Assembly (NCBI GenBank): GCA_032718475.1
Contig: JAUCBJ010006862.1
Coordinates: 1-60,459, forward strand
Length of the DNA stretch: 60,459 bases
Direction: 5' to 3'
From: Nemertoderma westbladi
Lineage: Eukaryota; Animalia; Xenacoelomorpha
The notes beneath the pieces are model-generated. The model was not told where the DNA came from. It did not search any database and saw only the letters and a program-made list of their open reading frames with translations. Positions 17,259 through 59,839 of this stretch are shown here, piece by piece. Numbering within the stretch: position 1 is the stretch's first letter; every line of letters starts with the position of its first letter. The translations under genes and the position numbers were made by a program.

Positions 17259-17777
17259 GCTCATTCGGGTCCTCCAGTATCGGTTGGTGGTCAGTCGAGT
17301 CCCGGAGTGTCGGTTGGTGCTCAGTCCGGTCCCCCAGTGTCGGTTGGTGCTCAGTCGGGTGGTACTCAGTCGGGTCAACCTGTGTCGGTTGGTGCTCCGT
17401 CTGGTCTACCTGTGCCGGTTGGTGCTCAGTCGGGTCCCCCAGTGTCGGTTGGTGCTCAGTTGGGTCCCATCATGCCGGTTGGTGCTCAGTCGGGTCAACG
17501 TGTGTCGGTTGGTGCTCAGTCGGGTCAACCTGTGCCGGTTGGTGCTCAGTCGGGTCCCCCAGTGTCGGTTGGTGCTCAGTCGGGTCCCCCAGTGTCGGTT
17601 GGTGCTCAGTCGGGTAAACCTGCGGCGGTTGGCGCGCAGTCCGGTCACCCAGTGTCGGTTGGTGCTCGGTCGGGTCAACCTGTGTCTGTTGGTGCTCAGT
17701 CGGGTCCCCCAGTATCGGCTGATGCTCAGTCTGGTCGACCTTCGGCGGTTGGTGCTCAGTCCGGTCCCCCAGTGTCG
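17259..17777 (+). repeat. 30-bp coding tandem repeat, about 17 units, VSVGAQSG(P/Q)P
   Basis: Unit CGGTTGGTGCTCAGTCGGGTCCCCCAGTGT and variants. Confidence 0.95.
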
Positions 17778-20666
17778 CCAAACACTACAGTGCCTCCTAC
17801 CGCCAGGGGGCACGGGTCTAATGCTGTTGCCTGGTTTGGGACCAGCTTACATTTAGACGTGTTCGCCGAATCAGTCCATAAGGTGCACGACGCGATCGTA
17901 CATTGGCGCCCCAACCTATTCCTCCTACCCCCCGGTGCGATCGGACGCGAAGTGGTTCAGGAGATGACTCGGCTGCTAAATATGTTTAATGCAGGGTCAC
18001 TATCTGGCGAGGCGGCGCTCACCGCGCAATTTATCTTACCCGCTCTGCTGCTACAGAAGCCCAGCCGCACTTCAACCACCGCGACCCACCGGAGAATTCT
18101 AGAACGCCGTATTTCTTCGTGGAAGTCAGGCGAGATTATCGAGCTGTTTAACGAGGCCAGGGCCATACAATCCCACCTCCCAAAGGTTTCGGCCCGGGCC
18201 AAACAACTCAGGAATACCGCGGCGGAGAGGGCTTTCTGTAAGCATATGTTAACGGGAAACGTTTCTGCGGCAGTGCGTACGCTGGATGAGATGGCCAAGG
18301 GTCAAGTGTTGAACCTGGATGAGGTAATCACCGACAAACATGGGGTTCGCAAGTCGGTTCGCGAGTTCCTCCTGGACAAACACCCCCCTCCAGCTCCAGC
18401 CCACGAGTCCACCCTTATCGGTGAGTCTGATGACGCTCCCGAATATCACAGCGTCATATTCGAGAGGATAGACGCTCAGTTGATCCAATCGATGTTTCTG
18501 CGCTTCCGGGGAACAGCAGGAGGGCCATCTGGTCTCGATGTCCAGGGCTGGAAGCACCTCGCGACACGGTTCCGCAACCCTTCTGTCGACCTGTGCACCA
18601 GCATCGCAAATACGGCGAAGAGGATGGCCCAATCTTCGAATGACCCGCGCGAGCTGGCATCCTTGCTAGCCGCCCGTCTCGTCGCTATCGATAAGTGTCC
18701 CGGGGTCCGCCCAATAGGAGTCGGAGAGGTCTTGCGGAGGGTCATCGGGAAGGCTATCATTAGCTGTATCTCGGAGGATCTCCAGAGCGTGGGCGGTACC
18801 ACCCAGATGTGCTGCGGCCAGAAGGCAGGTATCGAGCACGCCATCCACAGCCTGAATGACGCGTTTGCGAGCGACGACTGCGAGGCGGTGCTGCAGGTGG
18901 ACGCGAACAACGCGTTCAACTCGTTGAACCGCGCCGCAGCACTGCACAATATCCGCCATGTCTGTCCCTCTCTCCACACCGTTGTATCGAACTGTTACTC
19001 CCTCCCAACGAAGCTTTACATAGGCGGGGAGTTCATATTATCGGCCGAAGGATCAACCCAGGGCGACCCCATTGCTATGCAGATGTACGCAATGGGATCG
19101 ATGCCGCTGATCGGCGAGCTGGACGACGCGTCGGAGGTCCTTCAGAAGTGGTATGCCGATGACGCGAACGCGGCGGGAACATTGGTAGAGCTCCGTAAGT
19201 TCTGGGACCTGTTGGCGGAACGAGGGCCGCTGTACGGTTACAACCCCACAAAGTGTCACTTGCTCGTAAAGCCGGATCTGCTGGAGGAAGCTAAGCGGAT
19301 GTTCCCCGAGGAATGTTTTACCATCGGGACTGCTGGGAACAATCTCCTCGGTGGAGTGATCGGGAACGCTGAGTACCGGGAGGAGTTCGTCCGGAAGAAG
19401 GTCGACGAGTTTGTCGCCCAGTTACATCAACTCAGCAAGGTCGCAGCAATCGACCCGCACTGTGCCTACGCCGGCCTAGCTATCGGATTAGTTGCTCGAT
19501 GGAGGTTCATCGCAAGGGTTGTCCCGGGGGCCATGGATTTCTTCGAGAAGCTCGAGGAGTCCGTCGTCCAGTTCCTCCAGGGCCTGACCAACCGCCCCGT
19601 CATCACTCCCGAGGAGCGCGGGCTGCTCTCGCTACCAGTTCGCCACGGCGGGCTAGCGATCCCGACTCCCGAGGACTTACGAATCGAAAACGGCAACTCC
19701 AGGTGGATCTGCGAACCGTTTACTGAGGTCGTGGAACCGGTCGCTATAAGGGAGGCGCAAAAGTTCATCGCCACCCGGATCAAGGCGAGGGCCGTGCCGG
19801 CACTGAAGGAGAAGGTGGAGTCGGTTAGTTCGGACCTACCCGAGAATCAACGGAGGTTGACGGAGCTCGTGGCGGAACCTGGCGCCTCGGCCTGGCTCAA
19901 CGCGCGCCCCATAACCCTCCACGATACCCACCTAACTAAAGAGGAGTTCCGCGACGCATTGTGTCTGCGTTATGGGTGGCAGCCCGAGTCGCTCCCAGCC
20001 CGTTGTGCCTGTGGGACAAGATTTTCAACAAACCACATCTTGTCTTGTCCCACCGGCGGTTACCCGTCAATTAGGCACAACGAGCTCCGGGATTTCGTCG
20101 CCACAACGTTAACCGAGGTCGCTCATAACGTTGCCATCGAGCCGCACCTGCAGCCAATCACCGGCGAGCAGTTCTCCCGCACGTCCACTTCCGTGGACCA
20201 ACAAGCTCGGTTGGACGTGTCGGTCTCCGGGTTCTGGGGGAATCGATATCAAAAGACGTACATAGATGTATCCGTCTTCAACCCCCTCGCCCCGACCAAC
20301 GCCGCAATGGACGTCGACGCAGCCCACCTATTCCACGAAACCCGGAAACGCAACAAATATCTGGAACGGATCCGGGAAGTCGAGCACGCCACGTTCACCC
20401 CGCTGATATTCTCAGCGTTGGGGGGAATATCTCCCTCCACGACGCTGTTCGTGAAGCACCTCGCTTCAAAGCTGGCGGACCGGCGCGAGCTGCGCTACTC
20501 GGAGTGCGTGAGCTGGGTGCGGAGGCAGTTCAGCTTCGCGCTGCTGCGGGCCTCCCTGATGTGCATAAGAGGGTCGAGATCGGCACGGAAACGCCCAGTA
20601 TTTGTTGGGGCAGAAGCATCGCCGTCCATCTTGCTGGCCAACGCCGACACAAGGGTGGGACAGTAG
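17307..20666 (+). CDS. Retrotransposon ORF: decapeptide repeat, reverse transcriptase, CCHC knuckle, restriction-like endonuclease
   Basis: VRPIGVGEVLRR, DANNAFNSLNR, GSTQGDP, WYADD; CACGTRFSTNHILSC, RHN, E, RLD, D, KRNKY, FTPLIFSALGG. Frame is open from the element 5' junction and has no ATG there. Confidence 0.93.
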   Translation: MSVGAQSGPPVSVGAQSGGTQSGQPVSVGAPSGLPVPVGAQSGPPVSVGAQLGPIMPVGAQSGQRVSVGAQSGQPVPVGAQSGPPVSVGAQSGPPVSVGAQSGKPAAVGAQSGHPVSVGARSGQPVSVGAQSGPPVSADAQSGRPSAVGAQSGPPVSPNTTVPPTARGHGSNAVAWFGTSLHLDVFAESVHKVHDAIVHWRPNLFLLPPGAIGREVVQEMTRLLNMFNAGSLSGEAALTAQFILPALLLQKPSRTSTTATHRRILERRISSWKSGEIIELFNEARAIQSHLPKVSARAKQLRNTAAERAFCKHMLTGNVSAAVRTLDEMAKGQVLNLDEVITDKHGVRKSVREFLLDKHPPPAPAHESTLIGESDDAPEYHSVIFERIDAQLIQSMFLRFRGTAGGPSGLDVQGWKHLATRFRNPSVDLCTSIANTAKRMAQSSNDPRELASLLAARLVAIDKCPGVRPIGVGEVLRRVIGKAIISCISEDLQSVGGTTQMCCGQKAGIEHAIHSLNDAFASDDCEAVLQVDANNAFNSLNRAAALHNIRHVCPSLHTVVSNCYSLPTKLYIGGEFILSAEGSTQGDPIAMQMYAMGSMPLIGELDDASEVLQKWYADDANAAGTLVELRKFWDLLAERGPLYGYNPTKCHLLVKPDLLEEAKRMFPEECFTIGTAGNNLLGGVIGNAEYREEFVRKKVDEFVAQLHQLSKVAAIDPHCAYAGLAIGLVARWRFIARVVPGAMDFFEKLEESVVQFLQGLTNRPVITPEERGLLSLPVRHGGLAIPTPEDLRIENGNSRWICEPFTEVVEPVAIREAQKFIATRIKARAVPALKEKVESVSSDLPENQRRLTELVAEPGASAWLNARPITLHDTHLTKEEFRDALCLRYGWQPESLPARCACGTRFSTNHILSCPTGGYPSIRHNELRDFVATTLTEVAHNVAIEPHLQPITGEQFSRTSTSVDQQARLDVSVSGFWGNRYQKTYIDVSVFNPLAPTNAAMDVDAAHLFHETRKRNKYLERIREVEHATFTPLIFSALGGISPSTTLFVKHLASKLADRRELRYSECVSWVRRQFSFALLRASLMCIRGSRSARKRPVFVGAEASPSILLANADTRVGQ

Positions 20667-29460: not shown

Positions 29461-29584
29461 ATGGTGGTGATCCAGGAGGGATTCCTTGGCTTAAGGAACC
29501 TAAAAGATTATCCCGTTCAATATATGTGATTTAGTGACGGTAGGCCTAACACTGCAGTTAAATTAAATGGAGAATTCGTCTTAC

Positions 29585-29747
29585 CTGATAGCAGATCAGG
29601 GCTAATGAGCAGACAAGGTAATCAAGGAAGGTTGATTGGAGAGTTGGAAGTAGGAAGATGTTGTCGTACATGAGAACGATAAAGAAGACGACGAAGCCAA
29701 CGATGTGAGTCCAAATGTTAAGAGTTTCATTCGTCCATAGAAATATA
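29585..29747 (-). CDS. PAQR3: PAQR3-like progestin/adipoQ receptor family protein, first internal exon visible in the window (163 nt)
   Basis: Minus strand TTTCTGTCCCAG|T ATA TTT CTA TGG ACG AAT GAA ACT gives (S)IFLWTNETLNIWTH...CSLALICYQ, ending CAG|GTAAGA. NETxNIWxH is the PAQR motif. Confidence 0.9.
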
Positions 29748-29842
29748 CTGGGGACAGAAATAAAGTGGAAATATGTACAGTAGCACTGCAAAACATTTTT
29801 GCATAAATAAATATAAAAACGCCAATAATTTATAAAAATATA

Positions 29843-30175
29843 TTTAGGCTGGAAAATAGCTCGGTATAAGATAAATATAGTTAGTATGGAAAATAGCTCG
29901 GTAAAAAATAAATATAGTTAGGCTGGAAAATAGCTCAGTATAAGATAAATATAGTTAGACTGGAAAATAGCTCGGTATAAGATAAATATAGTTAGTATGG
30001 AAAATAGCTCGGTAAAAAATAAATATAGTTAGGCTGGAAAATAGCTCGGTATAAGATAAATATAGTTAGGCTGGAAAATAGCTCGGTATAAGATAAATAT
30101 AGTTAGGCTGGAAAATAGCTCGGTAAAAAATAAATATAGTTAGGCTGGAAAATAGCTCGGTCCGTATAAGATAAA
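29843..30175. repeat. 37-bp minisatellite, about 9 copies
   Basis: GGAAAATAGCTC recurs at 29851, 29888, 29925 ... 30147. Confidence 0.95.
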
Positions 30176-33812: not shown

Positions 33813-35528
33813 TTACCGTTGGTTTATCAGTGTGGAATTCGATTGTTGGTTGTGTAACAGTTGCGAGGCTGGCGGCACGCCCATGATGTTCCAGGAACTG
33901 TGTACACGGGTTACTGGTGGGGAGACAACAACGTAACTACCAGATGACGTCATGTTATCTGTGGTCCGGTTGCCATGGGAGTGGCCAATAGTGGCCGGTC
34001 TAGCTTGGCGTACCGACTGCCTTGCCAGTAACTCGACAGTGTAGCTGTTTGGTTTCACCCCAGAATTATTATTATTATTAATGTAGGAATTCCAGTCACT
34101 TCGTGTCTTATATCGCGGTGCGTCTGGGGGGTCTGCGACCGGGGAGTTGGTTCCCAGTTCGTCTGAGAGGGTCTGCAGTTGCGTCGCGTTTAGTGCGATG
34201 TTACGTTTTAGTTGATCGGTTAGAGAGAGAGAAATACCCTGGTGTTTTTGTGTATCGGTTACAGACAGTGGCATACGATGCTGAGTAAGGGGATTACTCT
34301 GCTGGCTATGGGGATTACTCTGTTGGCTATAGGGATTACTCTGTTGGCTATAGGGATTACTCTGTTGGCTATAGGGATTACTCTGCTGGCAATGGGGATT
34401 ACTCTGCTGGCTATGGGGATTACTCTGTTGGCTATAGGGATTACTCTGCTGGCTATGGGGATTACTCTGCTGGCTATGGGGATTACTCTGTTGGCTATGG
34501 GGATTACTCTGTTGGCTATGGGGATTACTTTGATGGCTATGGGGATTACTCTGTTGGTTATAGGGATTACTTTGCTGGCTATGGGGATTACTCTGCTGGC
34601 TATGGGGATTACTCTGTTGGTTGTAGGGATTACTTTGCTGGCTATTGGGATTACTCTGCTGGCTCTGGGGATTACTCTGTTGGCTATAGGGATTACTCTG
34701 CTGGCTATGGGGATTACTCTGCTGGCTATGGGGATTACTCTGTTGGCTATAGGGATTACTCTGCTGGCTATGGGGATTACTCTGCTGGCTATGAGGATTA
34801 TTTAGCATCCCATCTGCTCCAAATGGGTTCCGCCCAAATATAATAGGCTGGCTGTGACGTCGCGGGTTGGCGGAGCGACTAGAAGGAATCTCGGGTAGCC
34901 GGACGTTATCCCGGGCAGGTAGTCTGGGACCGCTACTGAATCCTCGGACCGGGGATACACTCGTAAAGAATCCACGGAACACGACGAAGTTGTTAACCTG
35001 CGGGACCGTGGCCCTGAGGTTGTAATGCTTGGCGAGGAAGGAGAGCAGTTTATCGGAAGGCCGATCCACCGCCATGGATTTGGGATCAATGGATTCCGTA
35101 ACCAACATCCGCTGGAATAATCGGCGACCGAACCCACTGCGTTGCAGCGATTCGTGTACGTAGAAATCCAGCACACAGAGCGGTTCGCATTCTATCTGAG
35201 TCCCCCCGCCGTCCCGGAGAAACAGTTTCTTTCTGCCGATCTTCAGTAAACCTATAAGATTCGGTTTCCCCAACGACCCTCCCTTCATCAAGTAAAGTAT
35301 TTGGTCCGAGTGTTTTAGTCGTCTATACGTGGTTATCGTAGATTTTAGGTGCTGTGCCTTGGCCGATAGGTCTCCTATAGAGTCTATCGCCCATTCTAAT
35401 TGGTTAGATAAATCACCACGGTAACCAATCATCCCAGACCCAAATCTTTCTAAGTGGTTCAAGTAATGGCTATCTATGCGAGTTATTTCATCTTTAAGAA
35501 GAACATTCAAATCATATTGGAATTCCAT
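33813..35528 (-). CDS. ATAT1: Alpha-tubulin N-acetyltransferase (MEC-17/ATAT1), single exon
   Basis: MEFxxD start, SAKAQ, GLLKIGRKKLF, PLCVLDFYVHESLQRSGFG, AVDRPSDKLLSFLAKHYNL, PQVNNFVVFRGFF. Confidence 0.95.
   Translation of the reverse strand: MEFQYDLNVLLKDEITRIDSHYLNHLERFGSGMIGYRGDLSNQLEWAIDSIGDLSAKAQHLKSTITTYRRLKHSDQILYLMKGGSLGKPNLIGLLKIGRKKLFLRDGGGTQIECEPLCVLDFYVHESLQRSGFGRRLFQRMLVTESIDPKSMAVDRPSDKLLSFLAKHYNLRATVPQVNNFVVFRGFFTSVSPVRGFSSGPRLPARDNVRLPEIPSSRSANPRRHSQPIIFGRNPFGADGMLNNPHSQQSNPHSQQSNPYSQQSNPHSQQSNPHSQQSNPYSQQSNPQSQQSNPNSQQSNPYNQQSNPHSQQSNPHSQQSNPYNQQSNPHSHQSNPHSQQSNPHSQQSNPHSQQSNPHSQQSNPYSQQSNPHSQQSNPHCQQSNPYSQQSNPYSQQSNPYSQQSNPHSQQSNPLTQHRMPLSVTDTQKHQGISLSLTDQLKRNIALNATQLQTLSDELGTNSPVADPPDAPRYKTRSDWNSYINNNNNSGVKPNSYTVELLARQSVRQARPATIGHSHGNRTTDNMTSSGSYVVVSPPVTRVHSSWNIMGVPPASQLLHNQQSNSTLINQR
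34296..34799 (-). repeat. 21-bp coding repeat, 24 copies of NP[H/Y]SQQS
   Basis: + strand unit GGGATTACTCTGCTGGCTATG; counted from the translation. Confidence 0.95.
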
Positions 35529-43839: not shown

Positions 43840-45342
43840 ATGGTGCTACATCGCTACAGGTGCCACAACTTCCTCCGTTTAGTTCTAATCGTTTCTGTTT
43901 GTTGGAATTCCCTTCTTATATTTCTACACCATTGGGGATGGCCGCCAGAAACGTTGCAATTAACAGCGGAACGGGATGCCTTAATCGAGGCCGCGTCCCA
44001 CCTGCAGCAGGAACTCGTACAGACCTCGCGATGCGACCACATCGTACCAGCGGTCTCCCGGAAATTCATAGAGAAAATTTGCCAGACCGGTCTGAAGAAC
44101 GAGTACGGGCCCGACCCATCCAATATGTTCTGTTCCACGTCGTCCAAGGATATGTACACCGACGCGAGTAGGTTGCGAGTGCTCGGAATACCTCGGCACA
44201 AACGCCACTTCCTGAGCGTGGCCGTGTTAATAAACAGTGACAGCACCCCAACCCGCGAGATTCTAACCAACGTATTCGCGACGGTTGACTCCTTAATATC
44301 TAATAGCAGTGAGCAGGACATCCTAGACGTAACAGTGGTTTTAGTTCTAACCTTCAAGGAAAACAGTGACGTCCAGAGTCGTGTTATCGACTCTGTTAAA
44401 CAGAGGTACCTTCTGCAACTAGGTCTGGGTTTCTTCCACGTGTTATACATCCCGGAGACGCATTACGATAAGGGGGATAGTAAGTGCGGTACCCGGTGCG
44501 TTACGCTGGGTTGGGTGGCGTTGTACACCTCGGCGTACAGCGAGTACCTCGCGGTGGTGCAACCGGGGTTGGTCACGGTGCCGGGGTACCGAGAACGGAT
44601 CGCCGACGCGGTACGCGAACACGGGGAGGGGGGCCAGTGGTCCGTGGTCGAGATGTCGCCACTCTACCGGGCTGCAGACCTACTGCCGACGGCCCGGGCC
44701 CCCAGACTCGCACACTTTATGGGCCGCTTGCACCGCGTACAGGACTACTCAACGCTCGTCTCTTATTTCGCGAGCGCACATGCGCAGAGAAAGCGGTTGA
44801 TCTGCCTACCTCCTGTGTTTGTCGGCTCGTCCGAATGCAAACGATGTCCGACGCCGTCGGAAATGGACATCCACCCAGACGCTCTCCTCTATAAGAACCC
44901 CAGAAACCCTCCCGCCGCCATCGATACAACGATAGCCGCTAGAGGCGTATACGAAGCCGTTCTAGCGTACCAAAGCTACGGTTTCTTCTACGCCGAAGGG
45001 CCTATAGTCGGCAACGACGAATTAAAGATAGTGTTCAATAACTCCAGGGAGTACGTAGACCGTGTTACCATAGAGACGGGATCTCCAAGCCAGACCAACC
45101 TCACGTTGGATAGCGCTGTGCTTCAGGGCACAGTGCGGACTACCACCAGTGTGAAACAGGGCAACAAACACAAGTGTCAGGGTTTCGAGACGATTGGTAC
45201 GTTCAATGGGGGGCGTCTGGACGCCACGCAGATACGGAAGCAGTTCCCTTATGGGTTGAAATGTTTACGGATACTCGTTAAGGATATGCAATGGGGGGCC
45301 GCGGTCATATATAAGATAGAGATAATATCTAAAGATAGTTAA
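43840..45342 (+). CDS. MGAT4C-like (GT54 family) type II membrane protein, catalytic motif degenerate, single exon
   Basis: N-terminal TM; FLSVAV, TVDSLI, WSVVEMS, PRLAHF, NPPAAIDT, IVF..VDRVTIETGS, LKCLRILV match the MGAT4 layout including the C-terminal domain. Confidence 0.8.
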   Translation: MVLHRYRCHNFLRLVLIVSVCWNSLLIFLHHWGWPPETLQLTAERDALIEAASHLQQELVQTSRCDHIVPAVSRKFIEKICQTGLKNEYGPDPSNMFCSTSSKDMYTDASRLRVLGIPRHKRHFLSVAVLINSDSTPTREILTNVFATVDSLISNSSEQDILDVTVVLVLTFKENSDVQSRVIDSVKQRYLLQLGLGFFHVLYIPETHYDKGDSKCGTRCVTLGWVALYTSAYSEYLAVVQPGLVTVPGYRERIADAVREHGEGGQWSVVEMSPLYRAADLLPTARAPRLAHFMGRLHRVQDYSTLVSYFASAHAQRKRLICLPPVFVGSSECKRCPTPSEMDIHPDALLYKNPRNPPAAIDTTIAARGVYEAVLAYQSYGFFYAEGPIVGNDELKIVFNNSREYVDRVTIETGSPSQTNLTLDSAVLQGTVRTTTSVKQGNKHKCQGFETIGTFNGGRLDATQIRKQFPYGLKCLRILVKDMQWGAAVIYKIEIISKDS

Positions 45343-46658: not shown

Positions 46659-47294
46659 TCACCGTAATTGATCCTTAGACTTTCTAACTTTGTCGCGTTT
46701 TCTAACAATAAGTTGTTTTAATCTATCTTTAGGATGATGGTTAGGGACATCTTTGAAATTCCCGGATGTGGGATCAACCACAGAAGATGGTTTGTTTAAC
46801 AATCCATTCACTGTTGTTGGTGAGGTATCCATCGGTACTGATTCACTTTGAGTCCCAACACCGTCCCCATTCCCATTGGCTCGGCGTAGTTCATCTTTAA
46901 TCTCGTTTCTACTTTGTCCCGCGGCCGTAAGATTATGTGATATGAACCGTTTGGCCGCGTCCACGTCTAACTTCGGCCGAGGTTCGCTTACTCGTTCGAT
47001 ATCCTTTATGAATCTCATGTATTTTCTGACTCGATTTAACTCATCCTTTATGCGATGGTCCTTCGGGGAGACCCCCTTGCTGACCATATAGACCCAGAAT
47101 AAACTGTTGGCCGCGTACATTGAGAACAAATGCAGTTTGGCTCTATCTTTAGAGTCGGGTAAGGTGTCCTCCATAACACTTCTTGTTTGATTAAAAAAAG
47201 GTGCCAAATGCGACTCAACAGCGGAAAGTTGATCCAAAAAGTTTTGGGTTGCATCCTGAATCTCTTCTGGAAGGTCAGCTATGTTGGAATCCAT
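46659..47294 (-). CDS. C1D: C1D/Rrp47 nuclear nucleic acid-binding exosome cofactor with C-terminal extension
   Basis: RAKLHL..YAANSLFWVYM..KGVSPKDHRIKDELNRVRKYM, KLDVDAAKRFISHNL. Confidence 0.92.
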   Translation of the reverse strand: MDSNIADLPEEIQDATQNFLDQLSAVESHLAPFFNQTRSVMEDTLPDSKDRAKLHLFSMYAANSLFWVYMVSKGVSPKDHRIKDELNRVRKYMRFIKDIERVSEPRPKLDVDAAKRFISHNLTAAGQSRNEIKDELRRANGNGDGVGTQSESVPMDTSPTTVNGLLNKPSSVVDPTSGNFKDVPNHHPKDRLKQLIVRKRDKVRKSKDQLR

Positions 47295-47343
47295 ATTTAA
47301 AGTTGAAATTATAGGAAATAATTAAAAGTAGAATATCGTAAAT

Positions 47344-48135
47344 TTAAGGGAAACCTTTAATAACTTGAGTCATAGAAAACCACAAACAATCTGAGTGTTG
47401 TTCTTGACTTCCGGTACCGTTATTGATATTCAATTTGGATAGAGATAGTTCTATGTTGTTTGAGTCTATTTGACGTTGATGAGGACAACGCTGAGTGTAT
47501 AGGGGAAGATTTATAGTGAAGATGGGGCTTCGAGCGGGGAATTTCAAGTTATGCTGCGGTTGAAAATCGTTATGCTGTTGAAAGTCGACGCTTCTAGATG
47601 CCAAAATAAATATTCTGAGATTGGAATTACCGAGGTCGGCACCAGTTATAAACTGGAACTCATCCAATGCAACTTGCAAGAACAATTGTTTGAGACAATT
47701 CTTCGTCGATGCTATATCCTGCGCACAGTCTCGGCAGCATACAGATTTAGGGTTGTTGATAAGATAGACTGATTTCGGGTTCGTCCAACTAGACCCTAAT
47801 ACGAATGCGACAGATCGAATTTCGTCTCCTTCTCGAATAATTTGTTCCTCTAGTTCAGATGTGATCCGGTCGACAGTGTTTATAAGAGATTCTTTTATCG
47901 AGTTTAGGTCCTTCGACTTCTGACAAGCCGCCTTACACTTGTTGTCAATTGATCCTTCGGAGTTAGTCGTTTTTGTGAGGGCGGAAACTTTCAACTGCAC
48001 GTACGGTTCGTCGATCAGTCCTTTTAGATACAATAAGTTCTTTAGGAATTCAGTAACTAGTCTGGCTTTCGTGGTGTTGCGAATATAACTTGATATATCT
48101 AATGCAATCGTCTTACCGTGTAGAGCTACAGCCAT
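47344..48135 (-). CDS. MAD2L1BP: MAD2L1-binding protein (p31comet), divergent
   Basis: EFLKNLLY...PYVQL, FVLGSSWTNPKSVY, C-terminal LWFSMTQVIKGF; 263 aa. Confidence 0.78.
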   Translation of the reverse strand: MAVALHGKTIALDISSYIRNTTKARLVTEFLKNLLYLKGLIDEPYVQLKVSALTKTTNSEGSIDNKCKAACQKSKDLNSIKESLINTVDRITSELEEQIIREGDEIRSVAFVLGSSWTNPKSVYLINNPKSVCCRDCAQDIASTKNCLKQLFLQVALDEFQFITGADLGNSNLRIFILASRSVDFQQHNDFQPQHNLKFPARSPIFTINLPLYTQRCPHQRQIDSNNIELSLSKLNINNGTGSQEQHSDCLWFSMTQVIKGFP

Positions 48136-48236
48136 TAATCGATCGAAATAATTATGTTTAAGGTATCGTTATGATATATCATATCTCATATCATATCACA
48201 GATTGTAATTACAGTTAATCCACTTACTTACAGGGT

Positions 48237-48644
48237 TTATTTGTCAAGATTCGGAGGGTGGCTATATATATCACCTTTAATAAAATTTTGCCTCTGTTTG
48301 TGTCTACCGTGTTTCTCGCAGACTATATGATGCCGACCCTTAATGATTACGAGTTTACAGTAGCGACAACGTTTCTCCAATTTATCGACGTTTTTGAACC
48401 CACGACTTGGAATTTCAAGAAGCGACAGGTCTGATAAATTTATTGTTGATGAATTGCCTACCGGTAATAATAATGTCGGGGCTTTAACGTTATTCGCATA
48501 AATTTGGCGAGTATATGTTGAGTATAACGGTACGGTATGAACGCGGATAACCAAATTATTATAAAAATTTATGTTGATAGGAGGTCGGAAACTTGATAGT
48601 CCCACAGCAATATTTCGTGATAGTACGGTTAAAAATATATTCAT
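48237..48644 (-). CDS. MRPL36: Mitochondrial ribosomal protein bL36m
   Basis: Presequence-like N terminus then GFKNVDKLEKRCRYCKLVIIKGRHHIVCEKHGRHKQRQ. Confidence 0.92.
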   Translation of the reverse strand: MNIFLTVLSRNIAVGLSSFRPPININFYNNLVIRVHTVPLYSTYTRQIYANNVKAPTLLLPVGNSSTINLSDLSLLEIPSRGFKNVDKLEKRCRYCKLVIIKGRHHIVCEKHGRHKQRQNFIKGDIYSHPPNLDK

Positions 48645-54839: not shown

Positions 54840-55144
54840 ATGTCTGAATTACTTATCACTTTGGTAAACGCAAGAAGTTTACCAATGCCATGTGTTGGTT
54901 TGGGAACCTACTGCATAAAGGGGGCTGATATAGCTAACCCAATACGGGACTCATTAAACGCCGGTTACAGACTCATTGACACCGCCGAAGGCTATAAAAA
55001 CGAATCGGAAATAGGAGCGGCATTGAAGGCCAACTACAAGCATCTCGGGTTGCAGCGTAAGGATCTGTTTATAACGAGTAAATTAGGTCCGAGTAACCAG
55101 GGATATATATCTGCTATACAATCCTATACGGAATCAGTTAGAAG
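54840..55144 (+). CDS. Aldo-keto reductase, exon 1 (3' boundary ambiguous)
   Basis: MPCVGLGTY, GYRLIDTAEGYKNESEIG, LFITSKL; catalytic D, Y and K present. Confidence 0.9.
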
Positions 55145-55576
55145 GCAATAAGCTGATAAGCGGATTTATGCACACTGGTTGATATTCCGATATTATAGAA
55201 CTAGCAGACTAGGCCTACCGGTAATCACGGTAATCGGGTACTGCTACTGGTATTAGCGGTGCTTGGGCTGTTGGGGGCCAGTCTCCAAACTGCCAAAGGA
55301 CCTCCTGACTACTGGGTCACTGGCCCTGGCCCAAACATAATGCCAACAACAACAACCAAACAGCCACAGTAAGCCTACCAATCACAATCATCAAATAATA
55401 TAGTTTATAAATAAATTAAATATAACAACTTTTATTATTTGTTAATTATAATAACAAATATTATAATACACTAGTTACTTACAGTATTAGTTTTAACTAG
55501 CATACACACGGAAACCTAACATTGAATGAATATCTAAACTTCAGATCAGTGTGCATAAAACCGCGTTGAACCGTAG

Positions 55577-56138
55577 GTTAGATTGTGAGTACCTGGATTT
55601 ATACTTGATACACTGGCCAGGCCAGTCTGGAGTAAAGTCTGGCGACCGACGGAACATAAACCCACGTAGGGAATCATGGAAAGCACTGGAAGAACTTTAT
55701 AAAACCGGGAGAGTCAAATCGATTGGAGTTTCCAATTACCTTATTCCTCATCTTACTGAGCTACTCGCTGAATGTGTCGTGAAACCGGCGGTAAACCAGG
55801 TGGAATACCATCCCTACCTAGTCCTCGACGAACTCAAGGATTACTGCAATAACAACGGTATTCACTTACAGAGTTACTCATCTTTAGGAAGAGGCGCACT
55901 ACTTACAGACACTCTGGTCTGTGAACTAGCAACCAAATACTCTAAGAGCCCCTCTCAGATTCTCCTGAGATGGTGTTTGCAGAAGGGCGTATCGGTTATA
56001 CCCAAATCCTCCCACAAGGAACACATCATCTCCAACTATAATCTGTTTAGTTTCTGTCTAACAGACAGCGATATACACCGTTTAGACGGACTAAATAAAT
56101 ACCAACGGTTTTGCTGGGATCCTTCCACTGTTATTTAA
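55577..56138 (+). CDS. Aldo-keto reductase, exon 2
   Basis: LDCEYLDLYLIHWP, KSIGVSNY, PAVNQVEYHPY, QILLRW..Q....IPKS. Confidence 0.9.
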
Positions 56139-56573: not shown

Positions 56574-56930
56574 ATGTCGTTAACTAAACTGATAGTCCCA
56601 AGCGTAGTCTTTTTCGGAGGATTATCGGGTCTCTACTACTTTGTACATCAACAGAACACCGATGACGGGCTTGCTAAGAAACTTGAGCGTATGGAACGGA
56701 AGGGGGGTAAACAAGCGGCGGATATCCGACAAATGCGATGGCAAAGGGAGCAGTCGGAAGAACTGGAACGGATTGGGATGAAGCAAGACTTGACAGACCA
56801 GGATCGGAAAAGTATTCTTATAATGGATAAACTTAAAAATGAGATGAATCCCGATGTACCTATATGGCTTAGAACCAAAGATGGTACAAGTATACACGAT
56901 GGGAGCAACAGTAGATGCTCCATAATGTAA
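56574..56930 (+). CDS. Small single-pass membrane protein, possibly PET117-like
   Basis: 118 aa; N-terminal TM ending VHQQ..D then a charged helical region; family match is weak and from memory. Confidence 0.5.
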   Translation: MSLTKLIVPSVVFFGGLSGLYYFVHQQNTDDGLAKKLERMERKGGKQAADIRQMRWQREQSEELERIGMKQDLTDQDRKSILIMDKLKNEMNPDVPIWLRTKDGTSIHDGSNSRCSIM

Positions 56931-58252
56931 GATACTCAATAACTATTATTTAATTGTTCAGTTTTCTATAACATTAATTATGTTAAAATGAAATCCAACT
57001 ATAATAATGTAAATATTATATCGATTAGTCCAAATGGATTTCTCCTTTTGTTAAATGAGGATTAAAAATATTACAATAAATTAAATAGCAAAGAAACGTT
57101 CTAGGACACGGGGGGGGGGGGGGGGGTGGGACTATCGCATATCCAGTGCCAATCTATTTAATATCTCGTCTCAACCAATTATCAATTAAGGGAAAAGAGC
57201 AGGTTATAGTGGCGTGATATTGTAACCGAAGCAATAAACGAGTGTTAATAACACGTAATATTGCTTCTGCGTCAATTTTACATGGTGAGGGATCAATTTT
57301 AATAATTGAATAGATATAAAGGTAGATGAGAGGCGTATAATATTGTAGTAATAATTTATGGAGGAAGAGGTTTAAACACTAAGTGTATTTTTCAATTTTA
57401 CTTTTGGATACGTTTGGTCCCAAATGAACCCTTTTTAGTTCATTTGGGAGTCGGACGCACGACTGGTTTCCAAAATGGTGAGGCCTACGATTGTTTTTAG
57501 TGGATTTTGACCAAAATATATAGCCATTTCACAATAAAAAAACCTTAAAATTCTTAGAAATTGGGGTCTGCCTTTTATGGAGAAATTGTTAAAAAAACGA
57601 TAATTGTTCAATACTCCATTCTGAAGCTTTGTTCCTTAAAAGAAATATCTGTGGAAAATGTAAGGAAATATGAAACAGGGATAATCAAATTTAATTCTCG
57701 TCAATACATCACAAAACAACAACTAGGCCTCAATTACTAAATTAAATTAATTGTGTAATTATTGACGATGGATGACAGCTGATAGCTAAGCTAGTAGACG
57801 ATCTCCTGTAACCTATTAAAACGCTATCAACCATAGAAGTTTAAAATTTCATTTATAAAAATAGCCTTTTTCGGTCAAATCGCAATTTAGTCTCACTTGC
57901 AAATAGAACCATCGAAGACCTGTATCGCTGTATTATTTAAAGTGCAACTTTGCATTTTAATATTAATTCATTCATGTAACATTTATCAATACATAAATAA
58001 AATACTTAACATAATTAAATAAATAGAAACACAAAAATATACATCATATAAAAAAACCTAAAAATGTATATATTTACAAAACACGGCAAGGTTGCGAGAT
58101 AACAAAAAAAACAAATATACTGTAGTAAAAACAAAATAATTATAAAAATATTGCAAAAAAATAAAATTTCAGGGATATATTTATTTCTGCGAAATTTGGT
58201 GAAAGAAATTAAAAAGTAATTTGTATTTGTCACAATATTTAACAATCTCTAA

Positions 58253-59839
58253 TTAGTCTGTAAATAGCAAACCTTGACTAGGTGTATAGCTAGGGTTACT
58301 AGGGTCCCTCGTTGCTATGGACATTAGGTAAGTACGCAATATGACGTCATCCTTGAACTCTGGAATACCATCAATAATGTTGACAGCTTCCACGGCACTC
58401 ATAGTGTAGTTAAATCTATACGGAGCAAGTACAAAATCAACAGACACTGATCCTTCGGAAACTCCTGTCTGCGAGAAAAGCGATGGTAAATGCATTCTAT
58501 TCGGCAGTGGAAGAACGGCCGTCAAAGAAGTTGGCCGGTTCGGAACCCTAAACCTCAGGCGCTGGGCCTCGTGCATTCCATAGAATGTCAATAACTCCTG
58601 GCCCGCAAATATATCCCGGATAACCATCATATAGACCTTGGATTGTTTAATCAACACCGTCACCAAGTTTTGATCCTGCTGGAAATTCGCGGAATTAATA
58701 AACTGTGGCCAAGTAGAGAAACGAGAGTCGTCGCCACGAAAGAGCGCCTGGGTGCCGTTCCGTAAGGTGAGTTTAACGACGTAGACACCGTCGGCTGATA
58801 ACATGTTGAACGGGACGAGCTGACCACAACCCCTGAACACGGTACCCACAGGTAAGAAAGACAGGGCGAAAACCCCTAAACCAGCTCCTGGGATAGTCGA
58901 TTGCTTTAATTCGACGCTAGGTGGCATCGAGAGAACCATTCTATTGATCATTCCTGGTATGGTAGCTACATTACGCAATACTTTTAGTTGCGTTATATTC
59001 AATGGAGTTAGAAGTCTTTTAACACTAATGTATCGCTGTATGTACAATGCTGGTTTGGTTAACCTAGGCGATGCTTCTAACGTCTTAGTGATCAACTCAT
59101 ATCGATCAGAAAAACAATCGTCTGTTCTGTTTTTGGAACGGTTATCTTTCTCGCAGTTTCCTGTTACCGCATGAATTTGATCCAATGGAATACGGACTGT
59201 CAAAGGGGTACTTTTCGGGGAGGGTAAAATAAAGTACGGCCTTTCGGTAGTGTAACCCATACCGTACCAGGTAAGTAGCTCCTCGCCGCGGGATATATTA
59301 CGCGCTGAAAAGTAGTAAATATGTTCCTTGTATCCCGTTCCCAACATATTCTGTTCCTGTAGGTAGTTAGCGGCGTTCACATAGCGCGCCCAATTAGAAT
59401 TGGCCGACTCCTCAGCATAGAGTATTACATGGCTAGAACTATTGTCTAACTTTTTTATTTTCCAACTGTATGTATCGTTTAACGAATCAGACTTGTTGGT
59501 TGTTAGAAATATTCCTCCGTATTCTACGACGGTGTACGCAGGAATATCGCGTACTGCGAACGCTCCAAGACCGGCGCCAGGCAGACGGGATGCTCGCAAC
59601 TCAATCCAGCCGCTAGGGGGCGTTAATTTGGATCGGTTCGGTGTCCCCATGGCAACATCCGCGTCGGGTAGAAAGGAAAACGGGCCCAATATGGGATCTG
59701 AGTCAGGGTCTGCCGTCGAAGAAGGACTACCCAGAAAATCCTCGATTCTAGAATAAATCTGACTGGCTATTTTTGAGTCGTAAACGATAACCAGCAATGC
59801 AATTATTGATATGATAATAGCGATACCCGTACGGCCCAT
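58253..59839 (-). CDS. Signal-anchored protein with two PR/SET (PRDM-type) domains, no zinc fingers, single exon
   Basis: MGRT + GIAIIISIIALLVIVY; domain 1 SRLPGAGLGAFA...SNWARYVNAA..EQN..ELLTWYG; domain 2 STIPGAGLGVFA...STWPQFINSA..DQN..ELLTFYG. Confidence 0.88.
   Translation of the reverse strand: MGRTGIAIIISIIALLVIVYDSKIASQIYSRIEDFLGSPSSTADPDSDPILGPFSFLPDADVAMGTPNRSKLTPPSGWIELRASRLPGAGLGAFAVRDIPAYTVVEYGGIFLTTNKSDSLNDTYSWKIKKLDNSSSHVILYAEESANSNWARYVNAANYLQEQNMLGTGYKEHIYYFSARNISRGEELLTWYGMGYTTERPYFILPSPKSTPLTVRIPLDQIHAVTGNCEKDNRSKNRTDDCFSDRYELITKTLEASPRLTKPALYIQRYISVKRLLTPLNITQLKVLRNVATIPGMINRMVLSMPPSVELKQSTIPGAGLGVFALSFLPVGTVFRGCGQLVPFNMLSADGVYVVKLTLRNGTQALFRGDDSRFSTWPQFINSANFQQDQNLVTVLIKQSKVYMMVIRDIFAGQELLTFYGMHEAQRLRFRVPNRPTSLTAVLPLPNRMHLPSLFSQTGVSEGSVSVDFVLAPYRFNYTMSAVEAVNIIDGIPEFKDDVILRTYLMSIATRDPSNPSYTPSQGLLFTD

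Follow-up and report, generated by a model that had tools for sequence, protein, structure and literature searches.

A predicted signal-anchored tandem PR/SET protein of Nemertoderma westbladi as a candidate lumenal lysine methyltransferase

The window (the whole 60,459-nucleotide stretch of Nemertoderma westbladi DNA that was analysed) contains an open reading frame for a protein, P0001, in which a hydrophobic N terminus and a short stem precede two PR/SET domains of the PRDM7/9 type (Table 1). The explanation that best accommodates its sequence features, in which we place moderate confidence, is that P0001 is a type II ER/Golgi glycoprotein whose first domain (PR1) methylates lysines of secretory proteins and whose second (PR2) is a pseudo-domain. 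The two parts of this reading differ in strength: a lumenal or extracellular location is likely, and methyltransferase activity, given such a location, is rather probable.

The frame is preceded by an in-frame stop five codons 5′ of its ATG. Under a codon model trained on the neighbouring genes, with 324 intergenic windows as a control (mean score −12.8), 16 of its 17 thirty-codon blocks score above zero. Codons 1-30 score 0.3, a value that 6% of the intergenic windows also attain, and the six in-frame upstream blocks score −7 to −24; GC content is 0.15 over the 60 nt 5′ of the ATG and 0.40 over the frame's first 60 nt. By this GC step and the change of codon score at the ATG, the anchor codons look exonic. 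The window provides only 620 nt of upstream DNA. It could be argued instead that the ATG is not the true start, and that P0001 represents the large exon of a gene for a nuclear PRDM7/9-like protein, in which splicing from an upstream exon skips the hydrophobic stretch. Introns do exist in this genome, as in the neighbouring aldo-keto reductase gene (split by about 430 nt); AG sites occur in the first 150 nt of the P0001 frame, and splicing at a weak acceptor-like site after nt 92 (TTTATTCTAG) could bypass the anchor; moreover, truncated PRDM9 paralogues are described as common (10.64898/2026.09.07.749791). We nevertheless consider this reading improbable, because the shift in GC content and codon score falls at the ATG and not at the AG sites, the window contains no knuckle or C2H2 exon, an AATAAA lies 3′ of the stop, and all of the N-glycosylation sequons are 3′ of any such splice site. 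Still further from probable is a decaying retrocopy or lineage-specific orphan without function, with its features arisen by chance. The single exon, the lack of a close homologue among the best 150 of 950 matches and the long branches are compatible with such an origin; however, most neighbouring genes in the window are single-ORF as well, and the 1.6-kb frame is stop-free though its halves are just 34% identical, which argues that it has been preserved through long divergence.

Table 1. Coordinates of P0001, its parts and other features of the window
Feature	Position	Strand	Remarks
ORF, P0001	58253..59839	(-)	528 aa, ATG start, stop-free, apparently one exon
Hydrophobic segment, predicted type II signal anchor	59780..59827	(-)	aa 5-20; Kyte-Doolittle 15-mer 3.33
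Stem	59693..59779	(-)	aa 21-49; amphipathic helix followed by a Ser/Pro/Asp stretch
PR/SET domain 1 (PR1)	59243..59692	(-)	aa 50-199; 5 sequons; pLDDT block means 75-98
Post-PR tail and linker	59003..59242	(-)	aa 200-279; low pLDDT
PR/SET domain 2 (PR2)	58559..59002	(-)	aa 280-427; degenerate internal duplicate of PR1
C-terminal region	58256..58558	(-)	aa 428-528; second post-PR tail, predicted beta-hairpin, two helices; pLDDT ~50-75
AATAAA, candidate polyadenylation signal	58180..58185	(-)	~70 nt 3′ of stop; poly(A) use putative
118-aa ORF	56574-56930	(+)	hydrophobic N-terminal segment; convergent with PR gene
Aldo-keto reductase gene	54840-56138	(+)	two exons
L36, p31comet-like, C1D tight tandem	46659-48644	(-)	gaps only ~50-100 nt
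MGAT4-like gene	43840-45342		
Alpha-tubulin acetyltransferase (Mec-17)	33813-35528	(-)	21-bp coding repeat (QQSNPHS) in the tail, 24 copies
Exon, PAQR/adiponectin-receptor-like membrane protein (presumed)	29561-29917	(-)	motif NETLNIWTH
Reverse-transcriptase ORF, non-LTR element	17472-20666		intact, 1064 aa; 30-bp repeat at start
33-bp AT-rich satellite	3646-26397		~690 copies; broken near 17.4-20.7 kb by the reverse-transcriptase ORF

The neighbours of the P0001 gene comprise a GRB2 homologue and, by Pfam, genes for alpha-tubulin acetyltransferase, an MGAT4-like protein, C1D, p31comet, ribosomal L36 and aldo-keto reductase. In the last of these, the motif is best restored by joining a GC donor (GCAATA) at 55145 to an AG at 55576, giving a 432-nt GC-AG intron. 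The spacing of the L36/p31comet-like/C1D tandem is suggestive of polycistronic or trans-spliced expression. The 118-aa ORF presumably resembles PET117, a likeness for which Pfam returned no match, and the NETLNIWTH exon resembles PAQR/adiponectin-receptor-like proteins in that motif. The GRB2 homologue marks the window as holozoan and most likely animal DNA; none of eight window proteins tested occurs in the protein collection, and a search with the C1D protein gave no match. The abundance of single-exon genes had suggested a glass sponge as a possible host (PMC10282587), but no silica role is proposed for P0001.

Pfam PF21549, the PR subtype of the SET domain, matches P0001 in two stretches (E = 2e-36; 124.8 bits, where the cut-off is 27), and purpose-built HMMs place the envelopes at residues 48-199 and 280-427. 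For both domains, PRDM9 is the closest match in sequence (E = 6e-19). In Foldseek comparisons, the best match of the PR1 model is PRDM9 4c1q (E = 1.5e-15, rmsd 2.2), and the PR2 model (m99495c7a0988) matches the same structure (E = 1.4e-13). PR2 was modelled separately; in the full-length model it stays unfolded because that alignment covered PR1 only. Neither a C2H2 motif nor a TGEKP linker is present in P0001 or in any of the window's six frames, and P0001 also lacks a zinc knuckle motif. The earlier note, which had described two PRDM-type PR/SET domains without zinc fingers, was thus correct on both counts, and the folds can be specified as PRDM7/9-like. The C-terminal approximately 100 residues gave no Pfam match and no Atlas match.

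PR1 keeps GAGLG, NWARYVN, N155 and the tyrosines Y107, Y176, Y192 and Y196, which correspond by alignment to PRDM9 Y276, Y341, Y357 and Y361. The first three of these PRDM9 tyrosines have been named as required for activity (PMC5519329; 10.64898/2026.09.07.749791), Y276 being described as probably dispensable (10.64898/2026.09.07.749791). Relative to PRDM9, PR2 has exchanged Y276 for C, W293 for V, R317 for Q, Y341 for M and Y361 for E; it still has N320 (as N382) and, as the only one of the three catalytic tyrosines, Y357 (as Y420). Of the two domains, PR1 alone looks catalytically intact, and PR2 is probably a pseudo-enzyme. On the other hand, both domains are without the near-invariant Asp of YVDG (found in 141 of 153 other domains) and without the GP of FGPYEG, and PR1 also lacks the LG that closes the post-SET helix; because of these three losses, the activity of PR1 may be altered or abolished. 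PR1 and PR2 are 34% identical, have odd features in common (including the post-PR tail) and come out as each other's sister in two trees, with support of 87-88, all of which point to an old duplication within the lineage of P0001.

Residues 5-20 (GIAIIISIIALLVIVY) form the sole strongly hydrophobic N-terminal stretch of P0001, and bear out the 16-residue hydrophobic segment previously noticed there: the best Kyte-Doolittle 15-mer reaches 3.33, against 2.02 for the next unrelated window, and the N-terminal 11-mer (3.62) exceeds that of every one of the best 150 relatives. The flanking charge is +1 on the N side and −1 within the 15 residues on the C side. Since an N-in charge bias is the established rule for type II anchors, the segment is predicted to be such an anchor (N-in/C-out); it might alternatively serve as a cleaved signal peptide. 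The AlphaFold model has a helix over residues 4-37. The Ser/Pro/Asp stretch of the stem is present as had been described, preceded by an amphipathic helix. The stem stops at the position of the PRDM9 zinc knuckle, where the Cys/His ligands have been replaced (DSDPILGP aligned to PRDM9 DSCAAHGP). By hydropathy and charge, P0001 has the layout of a type II protein, with a single N-terminal hydrophobic segment, an N-in bias and predicted lumenal sequons. An anchor of the opposite orientation (a reverse signal anchor in the ER or nuclear envelope), which would put the PR domains on the cytosolic or nucleoplasmic side to methylate histones or cytosolic proteins, would have the advantage that SAM is plentiful there, and the viral SET proteins L041, L043 and L044, in which a hydrophobic segment is followed by basic residues, have a layout suggesting a cytosolic domain. 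However, the charge bias of P0001 runs the opposite way, and neither the excess of sequons nor the loss of the zinc site would be explained; we attach little weight to this orientation.

All ten N-x-S/T sequons listed in the earlier note are present (N68, 115, 121, 133, 181, 233, 237, 281, 361 and 477), a number that exceeds the mean of shuffled sequences (3.9; P = 0.002) and the binomial expectation (P = 0.003). N68 (PNRS) is common to human PRDM9 and is not counted as evidence because PRDM9 is nuclear; the excess holds without it (P = 0.008). Control patterns occur in P0001 3 times (N-S/T), 5 times (N-x-x-S/T), 7 times (S/T-x-N), once (Q-x-S/T) and twice (D-x-S/T), and none of the seven other ORFs tested in the window has a sequon excess. 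The density in PR1 (3.0 per 100 residues) is greater than in any of 151 PR domains from other relatives (mean 0.36). N233 and N237 lie in what is predicted to be a disulfide loop between Cys229 and Cys242.

Representatives at 50% identity, searched exhaustively, yielded 950 matches, the best 150 of which were examined. Six of these 150 have an N-terminal Kyte-Doolittle 11-mer of at least 2.4, and all six, two vent-snail tandem-PR proteins among them, lack both the knuckle and C2H2 fingers, as do 17 of the remaining 144 (P = 7e-6 by Fisher's test, a value to be read with the facts that the cut-off was picked after the ranking was seen and that the six are not independent); at a cut-off of 2.0, 7 of 14 lack both (P = 0.0014). 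Nine relatives were called secretory-looking by eye: two Gigantopelta aegis proteins with tandem PR domains, oyster proteins, and five products of unnamed assemblies. The motif CxxC..CxxH, which we take to be the pre-SET zinc knuckle of the PRDM7/9 subfamily, is present in none of the nine and in 117 of the other 141, and is absent from P0001. Each of the nine has at least one PR domain with the three catalytic tyrosines intact, and their sequon excess is slight (P = 0.04). Proteins with a hydrophobic N terminus and a finger-less PR domain therefore occur in a snail, in oysters and in unnamed assemblies. Together with the charge bias, the sequon excess, the loss of the knuckle and the GC step at the ATG, these relatives support the earlier proposal that a PR/SET fold has been redeployed to the secretory pathway.

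The main rival to a methyltransferase is a protein of the secretory pathway or cell surface in which the PR folds, without catalysis, would read lysine-rich or methylated ligands in the matrix, immunity or adhesion. The degeneracy of PR2 and the absence of the YVDG Asp, the GP of FGPY and the post-SET LG from PR1 would suit such a binding module, as would the degeneracy of one PR domain in the snail protein P0011. The oyster protein P0140 carries a C-type-lectin segment (match to a mannose receptor, E = 5.5e-6, with a lectin Pfam score just below the curated cut-off) ahead of an intact PR domain, a fusion that suggests a recognition role, and intrinsic activity has been attributed to only some PRDM proteins (PMC4760075). 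On the contrary, PR1 keeps GAGLG, NWARYVN and four tyrosines despite its long branch, and every one of the nine secretory-looking relatives has an intact PR domain. We regard a purely binding function as rather unlikely, although well ahead of the remaining rivals, and continue to favor the lumenal methyltransferase.

In the oyster proteins P0140, P0127 and P0158 (XP_062607594, XP_052693142 and their kin), the first half of a C-type lectin domain precedes an intact PR/SET domain, and what by eye looks like its other half comes after it; it is possible that a PR domain has been inserted into a secreted lectin. Another cluster of single-PR proteins with hydrophobic N-termini and intact tyrosines (P0028, P0036, P0085 and P0120), near the nematode PR protein P0080, has a conserved CxxxC..C and a C-terminal CxxC without His ligands; possibly, zinc sites have been converted to disulfides in these proteins.

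In two quick trees, the secretory-looking PR domains fall in three clusters. P0001 groups with the second domains of the snail proteins in two of three such trees, and lies outside them once microbial and viral SETs are added; a single clade of secretory PR proteins is not rejected (p-AU 0.33, 12 rows vs 26). The placement of PR1 relative to the Prdm7/9 clade shifts between trees in which other PRDM subfamilies were not deliberately sampled. PR domains are described as metazoan-specific, and the best matches of PR1 are PRDM9-like (92 bits, compared with at most 64 for the nine microbial and viral SETs compared). A viral origin is not favored: a viral scan yielded 8 of 205 candidates, and the four of these that were scored reached at most 50 bits against PR1 and lacked the pre-SET match. 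The viral proteins L041, L043 and L044, on IMG/VR contigs for which a match at 2501 is recorded, are 168-174 residues long. Word-index searches gave two distant matches for P0001 and one for alignment A2, but are insensitive here because they missed the snail proteins. A metagenome scan yielded none of 131 candidates with P0001 and 40 of 260 with alignment A2, of which the 20 translated were generic SET proteins or had no usable frame. The first Atlas match of P0001, to a cluster of SET proteins most frequent in diatoms (0.92; 142 features shared), carries little weight because its recognition value of 2173 is below the 2300 mark.

A feasible model may be that a PR module from a PRDM7/9-like gene became fused to a signal anchor and was then duplicated within the lineage. 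P0001 would be inserted with its N terminus in the cytosol and its C terminus in the lumen, where it would be glycosylated; PR1 would use lumenal SAM supplied by a transporter of the SAMT-1/GoSAMT type and act on secreted, matrix or skeleton proteins, and PR2 would serve as a substrate-binding or structural pseudo-domain. A lumenal supply of SAM is plausible because C. elegans SAMT-1 and the plant GoSAMTs have been proposed as Golgi SAM transporters. In silaffins, lysines bear methyl groups (PMC10772126). It is also tempting to speculate, more tentatively, that the lysine methyltransferases of animals include a class, so far unrecognised, that works in the secretory pathway and was built, once or repeatedly, from the PRDM7/9 PR domain. 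Its forms might be an anchor with tandem PR domains (P0001), a signal with tandem PR domains (the vent snail), a lectin-PR fusion (oysters) and an anchor with a single PR domain; the class might write methyl-lysine on secreted, matrix or biomineral proteins and so have converged with the diatom BacSETs in their proposed role.

PR domains are usually regarded as chromatin modules of the nucleus, and interest in PRDM9 has centred on recombination hotspots. If the present reading is true, a lumenal or extracellular branch of PR proteins would bring SET-type lysine methylation of animals into the secretory pathway, would imply the import of SAM into that pathway and would provide candidate writers for the modified lysines of matrix and skeleton proteins. 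Some of the "SET-only, truncated PRDM9 paralogues" of genome surveys may likewise be secretory enzymes. Cnidarians have a conserved truncated PRDM9 paralogue of unknown function (10.64898/2026.09.07.749791), which is an immediate candidate for inspection for a signal sequence.

The known proteins closest to P0001 in the sequence and structure of both domains are PRDM9 and PRDM7 (4c1q, 4ijd, 6nm4), and the match extends over the pre-SET strand (GP.F..D..V..G.PNRS.L.). P0001 differs from them in lacking the zinc knuckle and the C2H2 array, in having a hydrophobic N terminus, tandem PR domains and ten sequons, and in its altered FGPYEG, YVDG and post-SET motifs. Pfam matches nothing in P0001 besides PR/SET, KRAB and SSXRD included; its first PR domain is preceded by just 45 residues, too few for these two domains, and the window extends only 620 nt upstream. 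Prdm transcription factors are defined by a PR domain together with C2H2 zinc fingers that vary in number (PMC4760075). By the usual definition, P0001, as judged from its sequence, is neither a Prdm transcription factor nor a functional PRDM9, and its features point away from nuclear localisation. The terms "signal peptide" and "transmembrane" do not occur in the main texts of the three PRDM surveys searched for them, whose supplements might list such proteins, and no secretory PR/SET family of animals was found by title or start of abstract in the literature searched, a body that leaves most subscription journals outside. To this extent, the statement of the earlier note that it knew of no described family like this one stands; the layout itself is not unique, since it recurs in snail, oyster and unnamed transcript-assembly proteins, and P0001 probably belongs to a wider undescribed group of PR/SET proteins.

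Among these relatives, the Gigantopelta aegis proteins (XP_041373733/2 and XP_041372519) share with P0001 a hydrophobic N terminus, two PR domains, the absence of knuckle and fingers, and the alteration of one of the two domains (in the snail proteins, at Y357). By contrast, they are only 23-28% identical to P0001, their altered domain is the N-terminal one, and a Cys-rich WPFFYxCPxGxC module, absent from P0001, follows each PR domain. The proteins of Saccostrea (XP_062607594) and Magallana (XP_052693142 and XP_034319756), as well as P0028, P0036, P0045, P0085 and P0120 of unnamed assemblies, similarly combine a hydrophobic N terminus and an intact PR domain with the absence of knuckle and fingers; they differ from P0001 in their single PR domain and separate tree clusters and, in the oysters, in the C-type-lectin segment. 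Diatom BacSETs are co-expressed with cell-wall formation and have been proposed as modifiers of wall proteins and polyamines. Nemoto et al., in 2020, reportedly found that they carry an ER signal peptide, and to our knowledge they are not of the PR type; being diatom-specific, they are likened to P0001 by description, as a functional analogue only. Finally, Golgi type II enzymes, such as the MGAT4-like protein encoded in the same window, have the same succession of a short tail, a single hydrophobic segment, a stem and a catalytic domain as P0001, but their catalytic fold is unrelated to the PR/SET fold.
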